Positions 2,416-51,652 of a DNA stretch of 64,000 nt are shown piece after piece. The stretch is from Flavobacterium sp. GTDB lineage: Bacteria; Bacteroidota; Bacteroidia; Flavobacteriales; Flavobacteriaceae. The translations under genes were made by a program, and so were the position numbers. The stretch is taken from contig NZ_JALDYN010000011.1 of the NCBI RefSeq assembly GCF_032153895.1, positions 3,937-67,936 on the forward strand. Reading direction: 5' to 3'. The notes beneath the pieces were generated by a model. The model ran no database searches. It was given only the letters and a program-made list of their open reading frames with translations, and was not told where the DNA came from. How positions within the stretch are numbered: position 1 is the stretch's first letter; every line of letters starts with the position of its first letter.

Positions 2416-3665
2416 ACGTAATTTTTAAAAACGCAACGATACTCGATAAAGAAAGTCCTTTTCACAACCAAAAAGTGGATGTTAAAGTGGAAAACGGCAG
2501 CATCGCAACTATTGGACAAAATCTGTCTTCTGAAAATGGTTTTAAAGTGGTGGAATTAGACAATTTACACCTTTCGCAAGGTTGGTTCGATTCGTCGGTT
2601 TCGTTTGGCGAACCGGGTTTTGAAGACCGCGAAACTATCGCTAACGGTTTGAACACTGCAGCAAAAAGCGGATTTACGAACGTGGCGCTGCAACCCAATT
2701 CCTTTCCGGTAATCGATAACCAATCGCAAGTGAGTTTTGTTCTGAATAAATCAAACGGTTTTGCTACCCAATTGCATCCAATCGGAGCGTTTACAAAAAA
2801 CAGCGAAGGAACCGATTTAGCCGAAATGTTCGACATGAAAAATGCCGAAGCGGTTGCTTTTGGGGATTATAATAAGAACATCGACAACGCCAATATTTTA
2901 AAAATCGGTTTACAATATGTTCAGGATTTCAACGGATTAGTGATTGCCTACTGTCAGGACAAAACCATCAAAGGAAACGGTGTAGTTCATGAAGGTTTGG
3001 TGAGTACGCGATTAGGATTGAAAGGAATTCCTGCTTTGGCAGAAGAATTGGAAGTAGCCCGAAACTTGTTTTTATTGGAATATTCCGGTGGAAAAATGCA
3101 TATTCCGACAATTTCTACTGCAAAATCGGTGGAATTGATTAAAGCTGCAAAGGCTAAAGGACTGAACGTAACTTGTTCTGTAGCAATACACAATTTAGTT
3201 TTAACCGATGACGTTTTGAGCGGATTCGATTCAAGATATAAAGTAACACCACCATTACGCGACGAGAACCACAGAAAAGCTCTTATTGAAGGCATTTTAG
3301 ACGGAACGATTGACATGATTACTTCCGACCACAACCCAATTGATATTGAATTTAAAAAGATGGAATTCGACAATGCTAAAAACGGAACTATCGGTTTGGA
3401 AAGTGCTTTCGGGGCATTGCAGACTATTTTACCTACTGACGTTATCGTTGAAAAACTAACCAAAGGAAAATCGGTATTCGGAATTGAATCATCGGCAATT
3501 AAAGAAGGAAATAAAGCTTCTTTCACATTATTCACCACAGCAGGAAATTGGGAATTTACCAAAGAAAATATTCTTTCAAAATCTAAAAATTCTGCGTTCT
3601 TAGGCCAACCGATGAAAGGTCGCGCCTACGGAATTTACAATAACGGACAATTAATCTTAAACTAA
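2412..3665 (+). CDS. Dihydroorotase-family protein, probably catalytically inactive (PyrC'-like)
   Basis: Amidohydrolase/DHOase motifs EPG, AAKSGFT, PPLR, TSDHNP, GTIGLE; the HxH metal motif reads SVS. Confidence 0.8.
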   Translation: MNVIFKNATILDKESPFHNQKVDVKVENGSIATIGQNLSSENGFKVVELDNLHLSQGWFDSSVSFGEPGFEDRETIANGLNTAAKSGFTNVALQPNSFPVIDNQSQVSFVLNKSNGFATQLHPIGAFTKNSEGTDLAEMFDMKNAEAVAFGDYNKNIDNANILKIGLQYVQDFNGLVIAYCQDKTIKGNGVVHEGLVSTRLGLKGIPALAEELEVARNLFLLEYSGGKMHIPTISTAKSVELIKAAKAKGLNVTCSVAIHNLVLTDDVLSGFDSRYKVTPPLRDENHRKALIEGILDGTIDMITSDHNPIDIEFKKMEFDNAKNGTIGLESAFGALQTILPTDVIVEKLTKGKSVFGIESSAIKEGNKASFTLFTTAGNWEFTKENILSKSKNSAFLGQPMKGRAYGIYNNGQLILN

Positions 3666-3670
3666 TCGTC

Positions 3671-3997
3671 ATGGAAAACAACACGGTAGAACAAGGAAAA
3701 ACTACGGCAATTATAAGTTATCTAACCATTTTGGGAAGTATCATTGCGATTTTCATGAATCTGGAACCGAAAAATTCGTTTGCCAAATTCCACATTCGTC
3801 AGGCGTTGGGAATCAATTTAATGTTTTGGGTATTAGGCTATTTCATTGGCTATTTTGACAGTTGGATGATTTCATCTGCCTTCTATGTTTTTGGATTCAT
3901 TTTATGGGTTTATGGTTTTATTGCTGCTGTTCAAGGTGAAGAAAAAGTAACGCCTTTGGTTGGTTCTTATTTCCAAGATTGGTTTAAAAATTTATAA
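3671..3997 (+). CDS. DUF4870/Tic20-like small membrane protein
   Basis: Three TM segments; AIISYLT...FAKFHIRQALG...P pattern. Confidence 0.7.
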   Translation: MENNTVEQGKTTAIISYLTILGSIIAIFMNLEPKNSFAKFHIRQALGINLMFWVLGYFIGYFDSWMISSAFYVFGFILWVYGFIAAVQGEEKVTPLVGSYFQDWFKNL

Positions 3998-4000
3998 TTC

Positions 4001-4645
4001 ATGAGTTTTTCATTATATCATTTAGTTCGAGAACCAAAGGTTAAACTCGACAAAAACCCATTATTGCTATTGTTACACGGTTACGGTAGTAATGAAGAAG
4101 ATTTGTTTTCTTTTGCTTCGGAATTACCTGAAGAATATTATGTCATTTCAGCTCGTGCACCCTATTCACTTCCACCGTACGGAAATGCTTGGTATGCCAT
4201 TCATTTTGATGCCGATGAGAACAAATTTTCCGATAATGACCAAGCGCGTGATTCCCGTGATTTGATTGCGAATTTCATTGATGAACTAATTGCAAATTAC
4301 CCAATTGACAAAGACAAAGTTACTTTAATTGGATTTAGTCAAGGAGCTATTTTAAGTTATAGTGTTGCGCTTTCGTTTCCTGAAAAAGTACAGCGTGTAG
4401 TAGCTTTAAGCGGTTATCTGAATTTAGATATTATTGACGAGAACTTCCGAAACAACAATATTAGCGATTTAAAATTCTTCATTTCCCACGGAACCGTTGA
4501 TCAGGTTATTCCAGTGGATTGGGCACGAAAGGCACCAGAATTTTTAAAAGATTTAGGCTTAGACATAGTCTACAAAGAATATCCCGTAGGTCACGGTGTA
4601 GCACCACAAAATTTTTACGATTTCAAGAACTGGTTACAGTCTTAA
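4001..4645 (+). CDS. Alpha/beta hydrolase, phospholipase/carboxylesterase family
   Basis: LLHGYGS, nucleophile GFSQG, HGTVD, GH triad. Confidence 0.9.
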   Translation: MSFSLYHLVREPKVKLDKNPLLLLLHGYGSNEEDLFSFASELPEEYYVISARAPYSLPPYGNAWYAIHFDADENKFSDNDQARDSRDLIANFIDELIANYPIDKDKVTLIGFSQGAILSYSVALSFPEKVQRVVALSGYLNLDIIDENFRNNNISDLKFFISHGTVDQVIPVDWARKAPEFLKDLGLDIVYKEYPVGHGVAPQNFYDFKNWLQS

Positions 4646-4647
4646 AT

Positions 4648-4680
4648 AAAAATCCCGCTTTAATTTAAGCGGGATTTTTT
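4648..4680. terminator. Bidirectional intrinsic terminator
   Basis: AAAAATCCCGCTT-loop-AAGCGGGATTTTT between convergent genes. Confidence 0.85.
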
Positions 4681-5189
4681 TATTGTTCTACTTTATCGCT
4701 GCCGACAAATTTCTTTTCTTGTGCAATGGCCGAAACGTATTGAATTTCAGTTCCTTTCTTAAGCACGTAACCTTTCCAGGATTCCAGCATCCAATCGTTG
4801 TTTACATAAGGTTTTCCTTCGCTTTCTCTTTTCAGTATGATTGATTTGGAAGACGTTGGTAAAAACAATTCGGCTTTGTCTTGCTCTTCGTTGAAAATGA
4901 TATAAGCATTCAAGGTTGCTTGCTCATTGTCTTCTTCAGTTGCTTCAGCTTCATTTTTATAAGGAGCCAAACGATAACCTTCTTCGAAAACACGAATACA
5001 ACCGTTTTTAATTTCAGACCACATATAGCCCGCCGAAGTCACACAGCCTTTTTCGTCTTTATCCGTACCTAAAACGACTTTTTTATCTCCTAAATCTACT
5101 TCGTTATCTTTATCTCGCGGCTTCAAAATCAAGTCGCAAGACGCCAATAAAAAAGGGATGATAACTACTATGAATAAATTTCTTTTCAT
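4680..5189 (-). CDS. Hypothetical lipoprotein
   Basis: Lipobox LLASC; DEKGCVTSAGYMWS motif. Confidence 0.75.
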   Translation of the reverse strand: MKRNLFIVVIIPFLLASCDLILKPRDKDNEVDLGDKKVVLGTDKDEKGCVTSAGYMWSEIKNGCIRVFEEGYRLAPYKNEAEATEEDNEQATLNAYIIFNEEQDKAELFLPTSSKSIILKRESEGKPYVNNDWMLESWKGYVLKKGTEIQYVSAIAQEKKFVGSDKVEQ

Positions 5190-22247: not shown

Positions 22248-23513
22248 TTACTCTGCAGAAACGTCTACTGTAGTTTTTTCAGCAATTGCTTTATAGGTTC
22301 CGTTGGATAATTTTTCACGAATAGCTTCGAAGGCTGATAATGTTTCATCAATATCCGCAATCGTGTGTGAAGCCGTTGGAATCATACGTAACAAGATAAT
22401 ACCTTTCGGAATTACCGGATAAACCACGATAGACAAGAAAATGTTGTAGTTTTCACGTAAATCGTTTACCATTACCATCGCTTCCGGAATTGAACCTTCT
22501 AAATATACTGGCGTTACACAAGTATTCGTATCACCAATGTTGAAACCTTTAGATTTTAATCCGTTTTGCAAATAGTTTACATTTTCCCAAAGTTTGTCTT
22601 TCAACTCTGGCATCGTACGCAACATTTGTAAACGTTTCAAAGCTCCAACGGTGAAAATCATCGGTAAAGATTTAGCAAACATTTGAGAACGTAAGTTGTA
22701 TTTTAAGTAATCGATAATGTCTTTATCTCCTGCTACGAAAGCTCCGATACTTGCCATAGATTTTGCAAACGTTGAGAAATACACATCAATTCCTTCCTGA
22801 CAACCTTGCTCCTCACCTGCTCCTGCTCCAGTTTTACCTAAAGTTCCGAAACCATGTGCATCGTCAACCAATAAACGGAAGTTGTATTTTTTCTTTAAAG
22901 CAACGATTTCTTTCAGTTTACCTTGTTGTCCTCGCATTCCGAAAACACCTTCCGTAATTACTAAAATCCCACCTCCTAATTCGGTAGCCATTTTAGTAGC
23001 ACGTTGTAAATTTTTCTCTAAACTTTCAACATCATTATGCTTGTAGGTAAAACGTTTTCCCATATGAAGACGAACACCGTCGATGATACATCCGTGACCA
23101 TCCACATCGTAAACGATAACGTCATTTTTAGTAACCAATGCGTCGATAGTAGAAACCATTCCCTGGTAACCAAAGTTCAATAAATAAGCTGCTTCTTTAC
23201 CAACGAAAGCTGCTAACTCATCCTGTAATTGCTCGTGTAAGGTTGTGTGACCAGACATCATACGCGCACCCATTGGATAAGCGGCTCCGTATTGTGCAGC
23301 TGCTTCAGCATCAACTTTACGGATTTCAGGATGATTGGCCAATCCTAAATAATCGTTAATTGACCAGTTTAAAATTTCTCTTCCGTGGAATTGCATTCTT
23401 GGTCCTAATTCTCCTTCTAACTTTGGAAACACGTAGTAACCCTCTGCTTGTGAAGCCCATCTTCCTAAAGGACCTTTATTGTTTTGTATTCTTTCAAATA
23501 AATCTTTTACCAT
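22248..23513 (-). CDS. PLP-dependent alpha-oxoamine synthase, most like cysteate-C-fatty acyltransferase (CapB/SulA type) of sulfonolipid synthesis
   Basis: NDYLGLA, DDAHG, TFAKS; N-terminus GPLGRW...GYYVFPKLEGELGPRM matches my recollection of SulA/CapB; TACTTTTG box at 23550-23557 (-). Confidence 0.78.
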   Translation of the reverse strand: MVKDLFERIQNNKGPLGRWASQAEGYYVFPKLEGELGPRMQFHGREILNWSINDYLGLANHPEIRKVDAEAAAQYGAAYPMGARMMSGHTTLHEQLQDELAAFVGKEAAYLLNFGYQGMVSTIDALVTKNDVIVYDVDGHGCIIDGVRLHMGKRFTYKHNDVESLEKNLQRATKMATELGGGILVITEGVFGMRGQQGKLKEIVALKKKYNFRLLVDDAHGFGTLGKTGAGAGEEQGCQEGIDVYFSTFAKSMASIGAFVAGDKDIIDYLKYNLRSQMFAKSLPMIFTVGALKRLQMLRTMPELKDKLWENVNYLQNGLKSKGFNIGDTNTCVTPVYLEGSIPEAMVMVNDLRENYNIFLSIVVYPVIPKGIILLRMIPTASHTIADIDETLSAFEAIREKLSNGTYKAIAEKTTVDVSAE

Positions 23514-23647
23514 AATTCAAGAATGTATAAGTCTGATTTTAAATCGCTCCAAAAGTAATTATTTCTGTTTTCCTATCATAATTATTTTGAAAAGATAGTG
23601 GTAAAAATATTTATTTAAAAAAATGACAATATTCTAAAAGTTTGAAT

Positions 23648-23655
23648 TACATTTG
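23648..23655 (+). promoter_or_regulatory. TACATTTG -7 promoter box of the candidate sRNA
   Basis: Consensus TAnnTTTG followed by CACCC-GAACG; there is no + strand gene downstream. Confidence 0.65.
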
Positions 23656-23660
23656 CACCC

Positions 23661-23724
23661 GAACGCACAGCAATGTGGTTACACGTTCAACTTAAAAGTC
23701 GGGGGCTCCACCTCGGCTTTTTTC
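23661..23724 (+). ncRNA. Candidate ~64-nt structured small RNA
   Basis: GAACG/CGTTC stem, CACA-GCAA-TGTG GNRA hairpin, GTTACA bulge, then terminator AAAAGTCGGGG-GCTCCA-CCTCGGCTTTT. Confidence 0.6.
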
Positions 23725-23827
23725 TTTTATAAAAAGCTACACAGCTTTCCTTCACATATCAAAATACACTAGAGACAGTGACTTATTCCTATTTTCTAAT
23801 ATGAATACACTATAATTTCCGTCATAA

Positions 23828-23917
23828 TTATTGGTAGTAAACATAAACTTGATATGCTGCTACCAAAAAAATAATTACAGCTAGAATAGCAATCCAAAAT
23901 TTTTTAATAAAATTCAT
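23828..23917 (-). CDS. 29-aa single-TM peptide or gene remnant (not in ORF track)
   Basis: MNFIKKFWIAILAVIIFLVAAYQVYVYYQ*. Confidence 0.35.
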   Translation of the reverse strand: MNFIKKFWIAILAVIIFLVAAYQVYVYYQ

Positions 23918-23953
23918 GGCTTATAGTTTAAAATTGATTTCTATCTGAAGATA

Positions 23954-23990
23954 GCAATAGAAGAACACTATTAAAATGTTCTTCTATTGC
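23954..23990. terminator. Perfect 14-bp inverted repeat downstream of the OmpA gene
   Basis: GCAATAGAAGAACA / TGTTCTTCTATTGC; weak U-tract. Confidence 0.55.
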
Positions 23991-24045
23991 ATAAAAAAGA
24001 TTTTATCGTTGAAAACTGGATTCTTTATCCAAATTTGTGCTCTAA

Positions 24046-25983
24046 CTATTTTTCAACAATGATAAAATCTGACCTTCTGTTTATAAAATGCTCGTCTTCA
24101 GAACATTTTACACCGTTACTGCACTGATTTCTTAATCGGGATTCTCCAAATCCTACGGCGCTTTCAATTCGCTCCGGAGAAATTCCTTTAGATAGAATAT
24201 AGGTTTGTGTTGATTTGGCGCGGTTATCTGATAATTTTAAATTATACAAATCCTTCCCTCTGGAGTCTGTGTGTGATTCGATTCTGATTCGCACTTTAGG
24301 AAAGTTTTGCAAAACGTAAACCACTTTATCCAACTCTGTTGCGGCTTGTGGTGTAATGTCCCATTTGTCGTAATTGAAGAAAATCGGGTTGATGTCTATT
24401 TTTTCATTACCGTTATCTTTTACAACAAAATCTTCCAATTTACTGAGTTCAAAATCAAGTTTGTGAATGGCGCCGTCTTTATCCAGAGTTATCAGTTCTT
24501 TTTCCTGAGTACTGTAATCTGGTTTGGATGCACTGATTTTATAGGTGTGATTACAAGGTAACTGAAATTCGAAGGTTCCATCTGCTTTTGTAGGGAATTC
24601 ATTTTTAAGATCTCCGAACGGATCAAACACTTTGATTGTTGCTCCTGAAAGTCCAATCTTATCTTTTGTGGTTACCACTCTTCCTTGAACAATTTGATTG
24701 CATTCCGGCTTTTTCTTGATAAAATGATAGATGTCATCGTCGCCTTTTCCCGTTTCACGATTTGATGACAAATAACCGTACTTTAATTCTTTATCAATGA
24801 TGAATGCAAAATCATCTTTATTACTGTTTGCCGGCTCGCCTAAATTTTTAGGCTCGGAGAATTTTTTACCATGCTGTTTACTTTCTAAAATGTCCAATCC
24901 TCCAAAACCATAATGCCCGTCAGACGAGAAATACAAAACGCCATCGTTGTAAAAAGGGAACATTTCCCTGCCAATAGTGTTAATTTCAGGTCCAACGTTA
25001 ATTGGTGTATTAATCTTTCCGTCTGAAAAAACCTCAGCCATGTATATATCTGTTTCTCCATAACCGCCCGGCATATCTGAAACGAAAAACAGCCACTTTC
25101 CGTCTGGACTTAAATTAGGATGCCCTACACTATAATCTAAACTGTTGAAAAACATTTTTTCGGTTTTAACTACCTTATCCCCTTCCAGCCATCCTTTAAT
25201 GATTTGAAAATTATTGGTTCTCTTTTTCCCGTTTTTCAATCGGTTACCTTTTAAAGTGTTTGTCGTGTAATAAAAGGTTTTTAAATCTGGTGAAAACGTA
25301 ATTGTTGCATCATGATAGCTAGAATTAATTTCTTTTAGAAACAGCTGCTCGTTGGTTAACGCACCGTCAGAAACACTTCTGTCTGCAACATACATGCTTA
25401 AAAAAGGCTGTTGGTTCCAAGTATAAATTTTGGTATCACCTTCAACACTCTCCTTACTTGATGAAAACACCAACTGATTACCATAAAATGTTGCTCCAAA
25501 ATCTGAATTAGCGCTATTATTTTCAAGGTTTCTCAAATCATACAACGGTGTTCTTTTAGAAATACTGTCTATGTATTTCTGATTGTTAGCAAAATGAGTG
25601 ATTTGCGTGTTATCACCCTTCTGTTTTAAAAAATCTTTGGCTATTTGATTCGCTTTATCGTAATCTCTGACACTTCTTAGAGTTTGAGTATAACGCAATA
25701 TGTATTTATCCGACAAACTCAATCCTTGCATATCGTACAACTTTTGATACCACGTAAGCGCTTTTCGCATATCATTTAAATAATAATAGGTATCTGCAAT
25801 ATTTGAAATGGTTTCAGCTGATGTTATCGACGGATTAGTTTCCAAATACGATTCATATAACTTGGAAGCCTCAACATAAGACATTTCATCAAACAATTTT
25901 TCAGCAGCTTTTAATTTCGATTGGGCAAACAGGACGCTTGTAAACAACAATAATCCCAGTGTATATATAGTTCTCATATGCAT
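24046..25983 (-). CDS. OmpA-family (PorE-like) protein: TPR, PD40 propeller, CRD and OmpA_C domains
   Basis: SVGHPNLSPDGK, FVSDMPGGYG, ESHTDSRG, NRRSDF. Confidence 0.9.
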   Translation of the reverse strand: MHMRTIYTLGLLLFTSVLFAQSKLKAAEKLFDEMSYVEASKLYESYLETNPSITSAETISNIADTYYYLNDMRKALTWYQKLYDMQGLSLSDKYILRYTQTLRSVRDYDKANQIAKDFLKQKGDNTQITHFANNQKYIDSISKRTPLYDLRNLENNSANSDFGATFYGNQLVFSSSKESVEGDTKIYTWNQQPFLSMYVADRSVSDGALTNEQLFLKEINSSYHDATITFSPDLKTFYYTTNTLKGNRLKNGKKRTNNFQIIKGWLEGDKVVKTEKMFFNSLDYSVGHPNLSPDGKWLFFVSDMPGGYGETDIYMAEVFSDGKINTPINVGPEINTIGREMFPFYNDGVLYFSSDGHYGFGGLDILESKQHGKKFSEPKNLGEPANSNKDDFAFIIDKELKYGYLSSNRETGKGDDDIYHFIKKKPECNQIVQGRVVTTKDKIGLSGATIKVFDPFGDLKNEFPTKADGTFEFQLPCNHTYKISASKPDYSTQEKELITLDKDGAIHKLDFELSKLEDFVVKDNGNEKIDINPIFFNYDKWDITPQAATELDKVVYVLQNFPKVRIRIESHTDSRGKDLYNLKLSDNRAKSTQTYILSKGISPERIESAVGFGESRLRNQCSNGVKCSEDEHFINRRSDFIIVEK

Positions 25984-50984: not shown

Positions 50985-51073
50985 GCTTAATTTTTACACT
51001 ACTAAATTACTGCTTTTAACAACATTCTCTAAAACAATAGTTATTTTTGTGCTGCAGAAAAAAAAACTCATTC

Positions 51074-51652
51074 ATGTTACAGCTCGTTTTCGCTTCCAAC
51101 AACAAAAATAAAATCAAAGAAATTCAACAATTAGTTCCTTCAGATATACGAATTCTCAGTTTAGAAGATATTGGTTGCGATGTCGATATTCCTGAAACTG
51201 CCGAAACCATTGAAGGAAACGCCATTCTAAAAGCCAATTATGTAACCAAAAACTATGGTTATCCTTGTTTTGCTGACGACAGTGGCTTGGAAGTCGATGC
51301 TCTAAACGGCGAACCCGGAGTTTATTCTGCTCGTTATGCCGGATTGCAGCGAAATGATGATGATAATATGATCAAAGTCTTGACCAATCTTCAAAATCAA
51401 TCCAACCGCAAAGCCAATTTTAAAACGGTTATTGCTTTAAACCTCAACGGAGAGCAACATTTATTCACCGGAATCATCAACGGAGAAATCATTCATGAAA
51501 AACGCGGAACAAATGGTTTTGGCTACGATCCGATTTTTGTAGCTGAAGGATACCACAAAACCTTTGCAGAACTTTCTATGGAAGAAAAATCCGCCATCAG
51601 TCATCGTGGAAAAGCGGTGAAACAACTGATTTCATATCTTCAAAAAATGTAG
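51074..51652 (+). CDS. rdgB: Non-canonical purine NTP pyrophosphatase (RdgB/HAM1)
   Basis: ASNNKNK, ADDSGL, GVYSARY, GFGYDPIF, SHRGKA; TATTTTTG box at 51042-51049. Confidence 0.94.
   Translation: MLQLVFASNNKNKIKEIQQLVPSDIRILSLEDIGCDVDIPETAETIEGNAILKANYVTKNYGYPCFADDSGLEVDALNGEPGVYSARYAGLQRNDDDNMIKVLTNLQNQSNRKANFKTVIALNLNGEQHLFTGIINGEIIHEKRGTNGFGYDPIFVAEGYHKTFAELSMEEKSAISHRGKAVKQLISYLQKM

Follow-up and report, generated by a model that had tools for sequence, protein, structure and literature searches.

The window analysed here is a stretch of 64,000 nucleotides of Flavobacterium DNA, in which a compact block on the + strand (23648-23723) lies between two genes of the − strand: an SPT-like α-oxoamine synthase (aminotransferase class I/II by Pfam match; 22248..23513, −), which is the divergent neighbour and has a −7 box of its own at 23550-23557 (−), and an OmpA-like gene (24046-25983, −), which converges on the block. 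The block opens with a −7 box, TACATTTG (23648-23655, +), which can be read directly and fits the Bacteroidota sigma-A consensus TAnnTTTG; its TA..TTTG letters are invariant in 19 of 19 sequences, that is, in the window and in the 18 homologues described below. A TTG is found 19 nt upstream of the TA of this box in 14/19 sequences of the homologue alignment (A1); the window has TGA instead, displaced 2 nt further upstream, and its −33 position (23624..23628, +) thus reads TGACA and is off-consensus. Since in the map of transcription start sites of F. psychrophilum the sigma-A box TAnnTTTG occupies positions −12 to −5 (PMC9723704), transcription is predicted to start at 23660..23661 (+), at the foot and first base of the hairpin that follows, in agreement with the start near 23661 proposed in a preliminary description of the locus.

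The hairpin (hairpin 1; 28 nt, 23661..23688, +) is predicted both by the minimum free energy (MFE) fold and by RNAalifold. It consists of an outer stem GAACG/CGTTC (GAACG/CGUUC in the RNA; 23661-23665 / 23684-23688, +), an inner hairpin CACA-GCAA-TGTG (23666-23677, +) with a GCAA tetraloop at 23670-23673, and a 6-nt bulge GTTACA (GUUACA in the RNA; 23678-23683, +) that is left unpaired on the 3' side; the 28-nt sequence occurs only once within the window. A variable linker, AACUU in the window (23689..23693, +), is the sole poorly conserved stretch inside the RNA, and it leads to an intrinsic terminator (23694..23723, +) for which the terminator scan reports 11 pairs, 5 of them G-C, a loop of 6 and a run of six T. 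The terminator stem-loop, AAAAGTCGGGG-GCTCCA-CCTCGGCTTTT (23694-23721, +), is made up of an A-tract, 7 G/C-rich pairs including U.G and G.U, and the invariant loop GCUCCA (23705-23710), with the T-run at 23718-23723; a G/C-rich stem-loop is thus followed at once by a U-tract on the transcribed strand, as expected of an intrinsic terminator. No + strand open reading frame of at least 40 aa was found from the terminator to 23987, and none of at least 150 aa before 33341, in keeping with the earlier remark that no + gene follows. Likewise, no family of Rfam 15 matches the element, even at E ≤ 10 with relaxed filters: the best overlapping match is BSnc120, with 17 bits against a threshold of 114 (E = 1.7), and the only other overlap is a chance match to Histone3 (13.8 bits). 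The box, both stems, the bulge and the 11-bp terminator are all found where the preliminary description had placed them.

Folding of the element is a property of one strand. The + strand folds at −22.2 kcal/mol into exactly two hairpins (z = −3.1; 0 of 200 shuffled sequences were as stable), while its reverse complement does no better than shuffled sequences (z = −0.03) and the terminator does not fold there. The proposal that the G.U pairs of the terminator work on the + strand only is therefore borne out.

Homologues were collected in two ways. Using the divergent SPT-like neighbour (22248-23513, −) as the anchor, 80 syntenic genome loci were fetched, and the element was recognized at the same place in two of them, one from Flavobacterium fragile (L014) and one from an uncultured Flavobacterium (L024). 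A metagenome scan with the exact 18-mer CACAGCAATGTGGTTACA returned 25 loci, of which 16 are true homologues and 9 are chance matches, a number that seems plausible for an 18-mer in such a large collection; the total is thus 18 homologues, from 2 Flavobacterium genomes and 16 metagenome contigs. A covariance model (R1), built from 11 sequences and used for the structure-aware alignment of all 19, detected no divergent copies beyond these 19 when run over 97 sources (727 kb), and in viral contigs only two chance matches were found. One of the nine chance matches of the metagenome scan (L094:1271-1288) apparently falls in 23S rRNA, where a short hairpin of variable sequence precedes the conserved stretch GACUGUUUACCAAAAACACAG; the assignment is based on a flank recognized by eye, and the match was judged to be a coincidence.

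In the alignment of 19 sequences identity runs from the −33 TTG through the −7 box and the hairpin to the terminator; the conserved block ends about 10 nt past the T-run, and the flanks cannot be aligned. Since 16 of the 19 sequences were ascertained by means of the exact 18-mer, the invariance of positions 23666-23683 is unbiased in only three of them (the window, L014 and L024), and in these three the inner stem, the tetraloop and the bulge are identical. The unpaired GCAA loop, the GUUACA bulge and the GCUCCA loop of the terminator are all retained. Overall, the 65-nt RNA is identical to its homologues at 53-61 of 65 positions (80-94%), and the differences between carriers fall either in the linker or at paired, compensating positions. 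For comparison, the SPT-like protein of the window is 85-89% identical to those of the other carriers, and the four-fold degenerate sites of its gene are only 39-54% identical between the window and the carriers (39-55% for all pairs, including L014 and L088), values that we read as near saturation. Because the RNA is 80-94% identical while the four-fold sites of the adjacent gene are only 39-55% identical, the sequence comparison indicates that the element is under purifying selection at the RNA level.

The pattern of substitutions points to the same structure. Among the 16 distinct sequences, all 320 pair cells of the 20 base pairs contain standard pairs, whereas in controls in which the pairing was slid along the sequence 17-50% of the cells are paired. 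Double-sided, compensatory changes can be recognized at three pairs: one in the outer stem, where C-G is replaced by U-A (L088, L095, L101), and two in the upper part of the terminator, which covary as G-C/U-A/U-G and C-G/G-C. Several other pairs toggle between A-U or G-C and G.U, as in the A-U to G.U change of the outer stem in L091 and L098, and the U.G pair of the terminator is kept in 15 of the 16 distinct sequences. The same fold is recovered independently by RNAalifold. Conservation beyond the terminator, whose absence the preliminary description had named as one outcome that would count against it, is thus present: the block is conserved from promoter to T-run and its structure covaries. 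Together with the metatranscriptome contigs considered below, the presence of the same block in 18 homologues upholds the view of a self-contained + strand unit of promoter, GNRA hairpin and terminator.

Three further pairings were considered. A pseudoknot between the GTTACA bulge and the downstream AACT had been suggested earlier, and it did not survive the comparison: it is specific to the window, its middle pair being broken in 14 of 16 distinct homologues because the linker varies, and an H-type pseudoknot of this kind (GUU:AAC, preQ1-I-like) was rejected, as its helix is only 70.8% paired across the homologues. An alternative hairpin, AAUGUG-GUUA-CACGUU (23672..23687, +), overlaps hairpin 1, and the two are mutually exclusive; the predicted stabilities are −5.0 kcal/mol for the alternative and −7.0 kcal/mol for hairpin 1, and according to the folding model the alternative could form in all five sequence subtypes. 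Finally, in the subtypes that carry an inserted A, the 5' end GAACGAC can pair with the 5' half of the terminator, GUCGAUC, and the MFE structure of the nascent RNA is an antiterminator-like fold. This pairing is absent from the subtype of L093, L084, L086 and L103, and in the subtype of the window it requires three C residues located before the predicted start.

The surroundings of the element differ between carriers. The SPT-like gene is the divergent neighbour in 11 of 19 loci, with a distance of 137-152 nt or about 272 nt from its start codon to the RNA core. In relatives the RNA lies between this gene and a same-strand gene of about 190 aa, which is followed by one of about 634 aa. The former is rdgB, a member of the Ham1 family (1e-66 to 1e-69), and the latter a DEAD-box helicase with a DbpA RNA-binding domain. 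The preliminary description had offered a cysteate or cysteine synthase as an example, which is not what follows the RNA in these relatives. Domains of the DbpA type recognize a specific hairpin of rRNA in E. coli DbpA and B. subtilis YxiN. The ancestral order is the SPT-like gene, transcribed away from the RNA, then the RNA, rdgB (Ham1 ITPase) and the DEAD-box helicase. The same two genes are present in the window: rdgB (Ham1-family non-canonical purine NTP pyrophosphatase; 51074..51652, +), located by tblastn and by a Pfam match to Ham1p_like (1.4e-69), is followed, as in relatives, by a DEAD-box RNA helicase with a DbpA RNA-binding domain (PF03880; 51830..53728, +). Here, however, rdgB lies 27.3 kb downstream of the RNA, behind a block encoding a T9SS adhesin, and a box of its own, TATTTTTG (51042-51049, +), can be read upstream of it.

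In six loci (L091, L098, L099, L093, L103, L092) rdgB begins 28-55 nt past the terminator with no TAnnTTTG in between, and only in these 6 of 19 is it placed directly behind the terminator without a promoter of its own; L024 and L090 have a TACTTTTG box between the terminator of the RNA and rdgB. The position of a 5' leader relative to a gene that it might regulate is thus found in 6/19 loci and not in the window, where the RNA has its own promoter and terminator, independent of any downstream gene. The gene that comes next is a convergent one in the window, L014, L088 and L095. The interval that follows the RNA in the window starts with the convergent OmpA-like gene, a PorP/SprF gene and an adhesin-sized open reading frame of 1933 aa, i.e. 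a T9SS cargo cassette, and a cassette of the same kind directly follows the RNA in L014 and in L088/L095, with only 38-46 nt between the RNA and the OmpA-like gene in L014 and L088. A common junction sequence is recognizable in the window, L014 and L088/L095, while the OmpA-like proteins are only 35-44% identical; for this reason the orphan arrangement, which is found in three diverged lineages with the RNA intact in all, looks old. The cargo differs elsewhere: a convergent 440-aa Kelch-like gene lies behind the RNA in L082 and L102, accompanied by a lipoprotein, and also in L085 and L086; L097 has a convergent gene of 230 aa instead, and L101 additional sequence. About 10 nt past the T-run the homology to loci in which rdgB is adjacent is lost, and the site directly 3' of the terminator (about 23734 in the window) is a hot spot for the insertion of differing cargo, as seen in the window, L014, L082, L085, L086, L088, L095, L097, L101 and L102; no integrase was seen in the fetched flanks of these loci.

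There are also loci in which the RNA is missing. In L018 (1745-1932) and L033 (2835-3001) the SPT-like gene adjoins rdgB, at a distance of 166-187 nt, with no trace of the RNA; in L033 rdgB is preceded by an ordinary TATCTTTG box. As L018 is the sister of the RNA-bearing L101 on the tree of SPT-like proteins, its arrangement suggests a recent and clean loss. On the same tree the carriers are scattered, such that at least five changes are needed, and we therefore read the RNA as an old element that has been lost repeatedly.

Some additional features of these loci can be mentioned. The SPT-like gene and the RNA of L101 are separated by an insertion (oriented 3140-4985) that encodes a DUF2157 membrane protein and a GDYXXLXY protein, which shows that the RNA can remain linked to rdgB, just as it can to the SPT-like gene. 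In the window, part of the 320 nt from the terminator of the RNA to the OmpA-like gene (23724-24045) can be aligned with the short junction found in L014 and L088, namely with the terminator and 3' end of the OmpA-like gene, and this interval looks like a junction remnant. It contains an open reading frame for a hydrophobic peptide of 29 aa (23828-23917, −), which is conserved in no related locus, and a perfect 14-bp inverted repeat, GCAATAGAAGAACA ... TGTTCTTCTATTGC (23955-23991), just downstream of the OmpA-like gene and probably its terminator; this repeat gave spurious snoRNA and miRNA matches in the relaxed Rfam scan. Finally, a contig binned into a metagenome-assembled genome of Limnohabitans (Betaproteobacteria; L003, JASGCW010000093.1) carries a Flavobacterium-type SPT-like gene (88% identical) and a partial rdgB, and probably represents a binning error in the public record.

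Evidence of transcription comes from metatranscriptomes in which relatives of the element are represented. In two true metatranscriptomes (X22 and X26) contigs of the L093 type extend from within rdgB through the terminator and end at positions 2558 (X22; a 254-nt contig with no mismatches) and 2557 (X26; a 595-nt contig), which is 7-8 nt into the RNA if it starts, as predicted, at 2566/2565; the 150 nt of promoter and spacer have zero coverage, which resumes at the start codon of the SPT-like gene. A contig of the L099 type in X26 begins 13 nt after the predicted start and runs for 171 nt towards rdgB, and one more read-through contig is present in X36. Because these contigs start just past the predicted start and continue into rdgB, the promoter is active and the terminator leaky in relatives. 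In X21 a 63-nt contig corresponds to the predicted RNA, reaching from its predicted +1 position to the base after the U-tract, and two contigs end exactly on the base equivalent to the predicted start; as X21 also has contigs with promoter DNA of relatives, this short contig may reflect a de Bruijn break where conservation ends, and as a sign of a discrete short RNA it is only suggestive. In none of the runs is a discrete short transcript visible beyond doubt, and RNAs of this size are not expected to survive such library preparation. No RNA run is listed for the window's own 86-nt variant, for which there are low-depth contigs in X4 and X19, runs whose status as RNA is a guess; one of these contigs covers 23554-23717, its upstream end thus lying before the predicted start.

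The best reading of the block at 23648-23723 (+) is a real, selected and separately transcribed small RNA, and we assign a probability of roughly 0.6 to the proposition that the short terminated product, of about 62 nt, functions in its own right, probably in trans. According to this reading, the sigma-A promoter TACATTTG would start transcription at about 23660/23661, at the foot of the 28-nt hairpin, and the intrinsic terminator would stop most transcripts in the T-run at 23718-23723, yielding an RNA of about 60-63 nt. The unit is old within Flavobacterium, and its ancestral place is between the divergent SPT-like gene and rdgB-deaD; its terminator is leaky, and in several relatives read-through from the RNA promoter is the sole visible source of rdgB transcription. 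A T9SS cargo block separates the RNA from rdgB in the window and in no fewer than two further diverged lineages, the rdgB of the window having its own promoter. The short terminated RNA would most likely act in trans, the invariant loops GCAA, GUUACA and GCUCCA serving as a candidate contact surface for an mRNA or a protein. We are led to a function of its own because the promoter, both helices and the unpaired nucleotides are kept despite the orphan state, because the 13 of 19 copies whose position does not allow them to regulate rdgB show the same degree of conservation as the other six, and because the orphan state appears to be old. Against a separate function counts the fact that the RNA is dispensable, since most Flavobacterium loci, L018 and L033 among them, are without it at this site. 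The 5' region of the SPT mRNA offers only weak A/U- and G.U-rich matches to the RNA, and their complementarity is not conserved.

The preliminary description had framed the problem as a choice between a trans-acting sRNA and an attenuator orphaned by the arrival of an accessory block, and these are indeed the two live explanations, because relatives have a + gene within 28-95 nt of the RNA, while that of the window lies 27 kb further on, behind the T9SS adhesin block. If the element were purely a cis-acting leader of rdgB-deaD (an attenuator or a small terminator-embedded riboswitch in which a factor, a metabolite or temperature chooses between termination and read-through), the copy in the window would be a functionless orphan. 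This is what the six loci with promoter, structured leader, terminator and gene within 28-55 nt, and no promoter in between, would lead one to expect; every metatranscriptome contig of the RNA reads through into rdgB, which fits a leader equally well, the two mutually exclusive hairpins (−7.0 and −5.0 kcal/mol) and the antiterminator-like pairing of the 5' end with the terminator in the A-insert subtypes would be suited to a switch, and the invariant loop of the terminator hints at more than a plain terminator. However, the antiterminator pairing is not conserved, being absent in L093/L084/L086/L103 and dependent in the window on bases that precede the start; 13 of 19 copies are unable to control rdgB in cis and yet are conserved like the rest, the RNA has survived in an orphan arrangement that appears old, and relatives that lack the element drive rdgB from an ordinary promoter. 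A purely cis-acting role, the main rival reading, is unlikely, though its chance is not negligible. We regard as improbable a combination of the two, in which a very small RNA switch would control rdgB and a cold-shock-type helicase by conditional termination through the two exclusive hairpins (with, for example, non-canonical purine nucleotides, temperature or the helicase itself as the signal), and the product of termination would have been recruited as an sRNA acting in trans; such co-option would account for survival as an orphan, and no riboswitch or attenuator for rdgB/Ham1 was found in the literature.

The remaining explanations do without a functional RNA or give it another role. The block could act as DNA, either as a palindromic operator located among the divergent promoters or simply as a shared terminator, the transcript having no role: GAACG...CGTTC and CACA...TGTG are DNA palindromes, and the block is 90 nt from the −7 box of the SPT-like gene. 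This is very improbable, considering that the conserved U.G and G.U pairs become A.C mismatches on the other strand, which is unfolded, that the block is conserved together with its own −7 box and T-run, that RNA contigs begin just past the box, and that the OmpA-like gene has a separate terminator of its own. It is extremely improbable that the transcript is the mRNA of a micro-peptide read from the AUG of the tetraloop (23673-23675), which in the window would be MWLHVQLKSRGLHLGFFLL, of 19 aa. This AUG does open a frame of 17-27 codons in all homologues, and Bacteroidota do not need a Shine-Dalgarno sequence (PMC9723704), but it is sequestered, 13 nt from the 5' end, in the hairpin of highest stability, and the reading was rejected on the pattern of substitutions, which are paired across the helices and change residues (G/S, H/Q, L/I/V), with non-synonymous changes in the linker and a stop whose position varies. 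An antitoxin RNA of a type I toxin-antitoxin pair has next to no probability: although the small hydrophobic frame at 23828-23917 (−) converges on the RNA from about 100 nt away, the peptide was found beside none of the 18 homologues, L014 and L088 leave only 38-46 nt between the RNA and the OmpA-like gene, no overlap or extended complementarity is evident, and the region looks like the remnant of a junction; this reading was rejected on the absence of the 29-aa frame from all related loci. A guide RNA of the dCas12f or omega-RNA type, in which a conserved scaffold is followed by a variable 3' guide and which is encoded near its effector (PMC13472631), was rejected as well, since the 3' end of the element is a conserved terminator and its only variable stretch is the 5-nt linker.

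Taken as a separate small RNA, the element is a well-supported sRNA candidate on the present evidence. We know of few regulatory RNAs of Bacteroidota described outside the gut Bacteroides, and to our knowledge the phylum is without Hfq and ProQ. A compact, strongly selected RNA of about 62 nt, with promoter, structure and terminator defined and with cultivable carriers such as F. fragile, offers a tractable entry point. Being the leader of rdgB, a house-cleaning gene, in some species and a stand-alone gene in others, it amounts to a natural experiment on how leaders become sRNAs, and it also marks a site that has repeatedly received T9SS cargo cassettes and other genes. Should the element prove to sense the quality of the nucleotide pool or temperature, it would represent a new regulatory class.

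These results can be compared with what has been described for other small RNAs and leaders. The sRNAs Rfp18 of Flavobacterium psychrophilum (PMC9723704) and GibS of Bacteroides thetaiotaomicron (PMC7366714) likewise have their own TAnnTTTG promoter and an intrinsic terminator, and they share with the RNA of the window the lack of coding potential, stable stem-loops, conservation that is limited to part of a genus, and hairpin loops as a candidate contact surface. They differ in having no sequence or Rfam relationship to it; moreover, at about 62 nt the RNA of the window is much shorter (the median independent transcript of F. psychrophilum is 176 bp) and, unlike them, it also serves in some genomes as a 5' leader to rdgB. 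In the literature the sequence of the RNA core was not found, and the F. psychrophilum supplements contain neither the RNA sequence nor rdgB. Flavo-1 and the other Flavobacteria motifs of Rfam are from the same taxon and are also small and hairpin-based; none of them matches the RNA at E ≤ 10. The Listeria RNAs SreA and SreB are riboswitch-derived sRNAs that also act in trans. As with these, a single promoter gives rise to a promoter-proximal terminated transcript and a read-through mRNA, and the short product could have a function of its own; unlike them, the element persists where no gene follows, and no ligand or aptamer class is assigned to it. The HMP-PP thiS motif is a small terminator-embedded riboswitch or attenuator, and it resembles the present element in having a short hairpin followed by a terminator whose nucleotides are conserved beyond the needs of termination, and in lying directly upstream of a metabolic gene in some genomes; in contrast to that motif, the terminator stem is perfectly paired and leaves no internal loop or pocket, the subtypes do not share a conserved antiterminator pairing, and most copies are upstream of no gene. 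The RNA of the window is thus outside all curated families, and resembles both the intergenic sRNAs of F. psychrophilum and B. thetaiotaomicron and the sRNAs derived from leaders.
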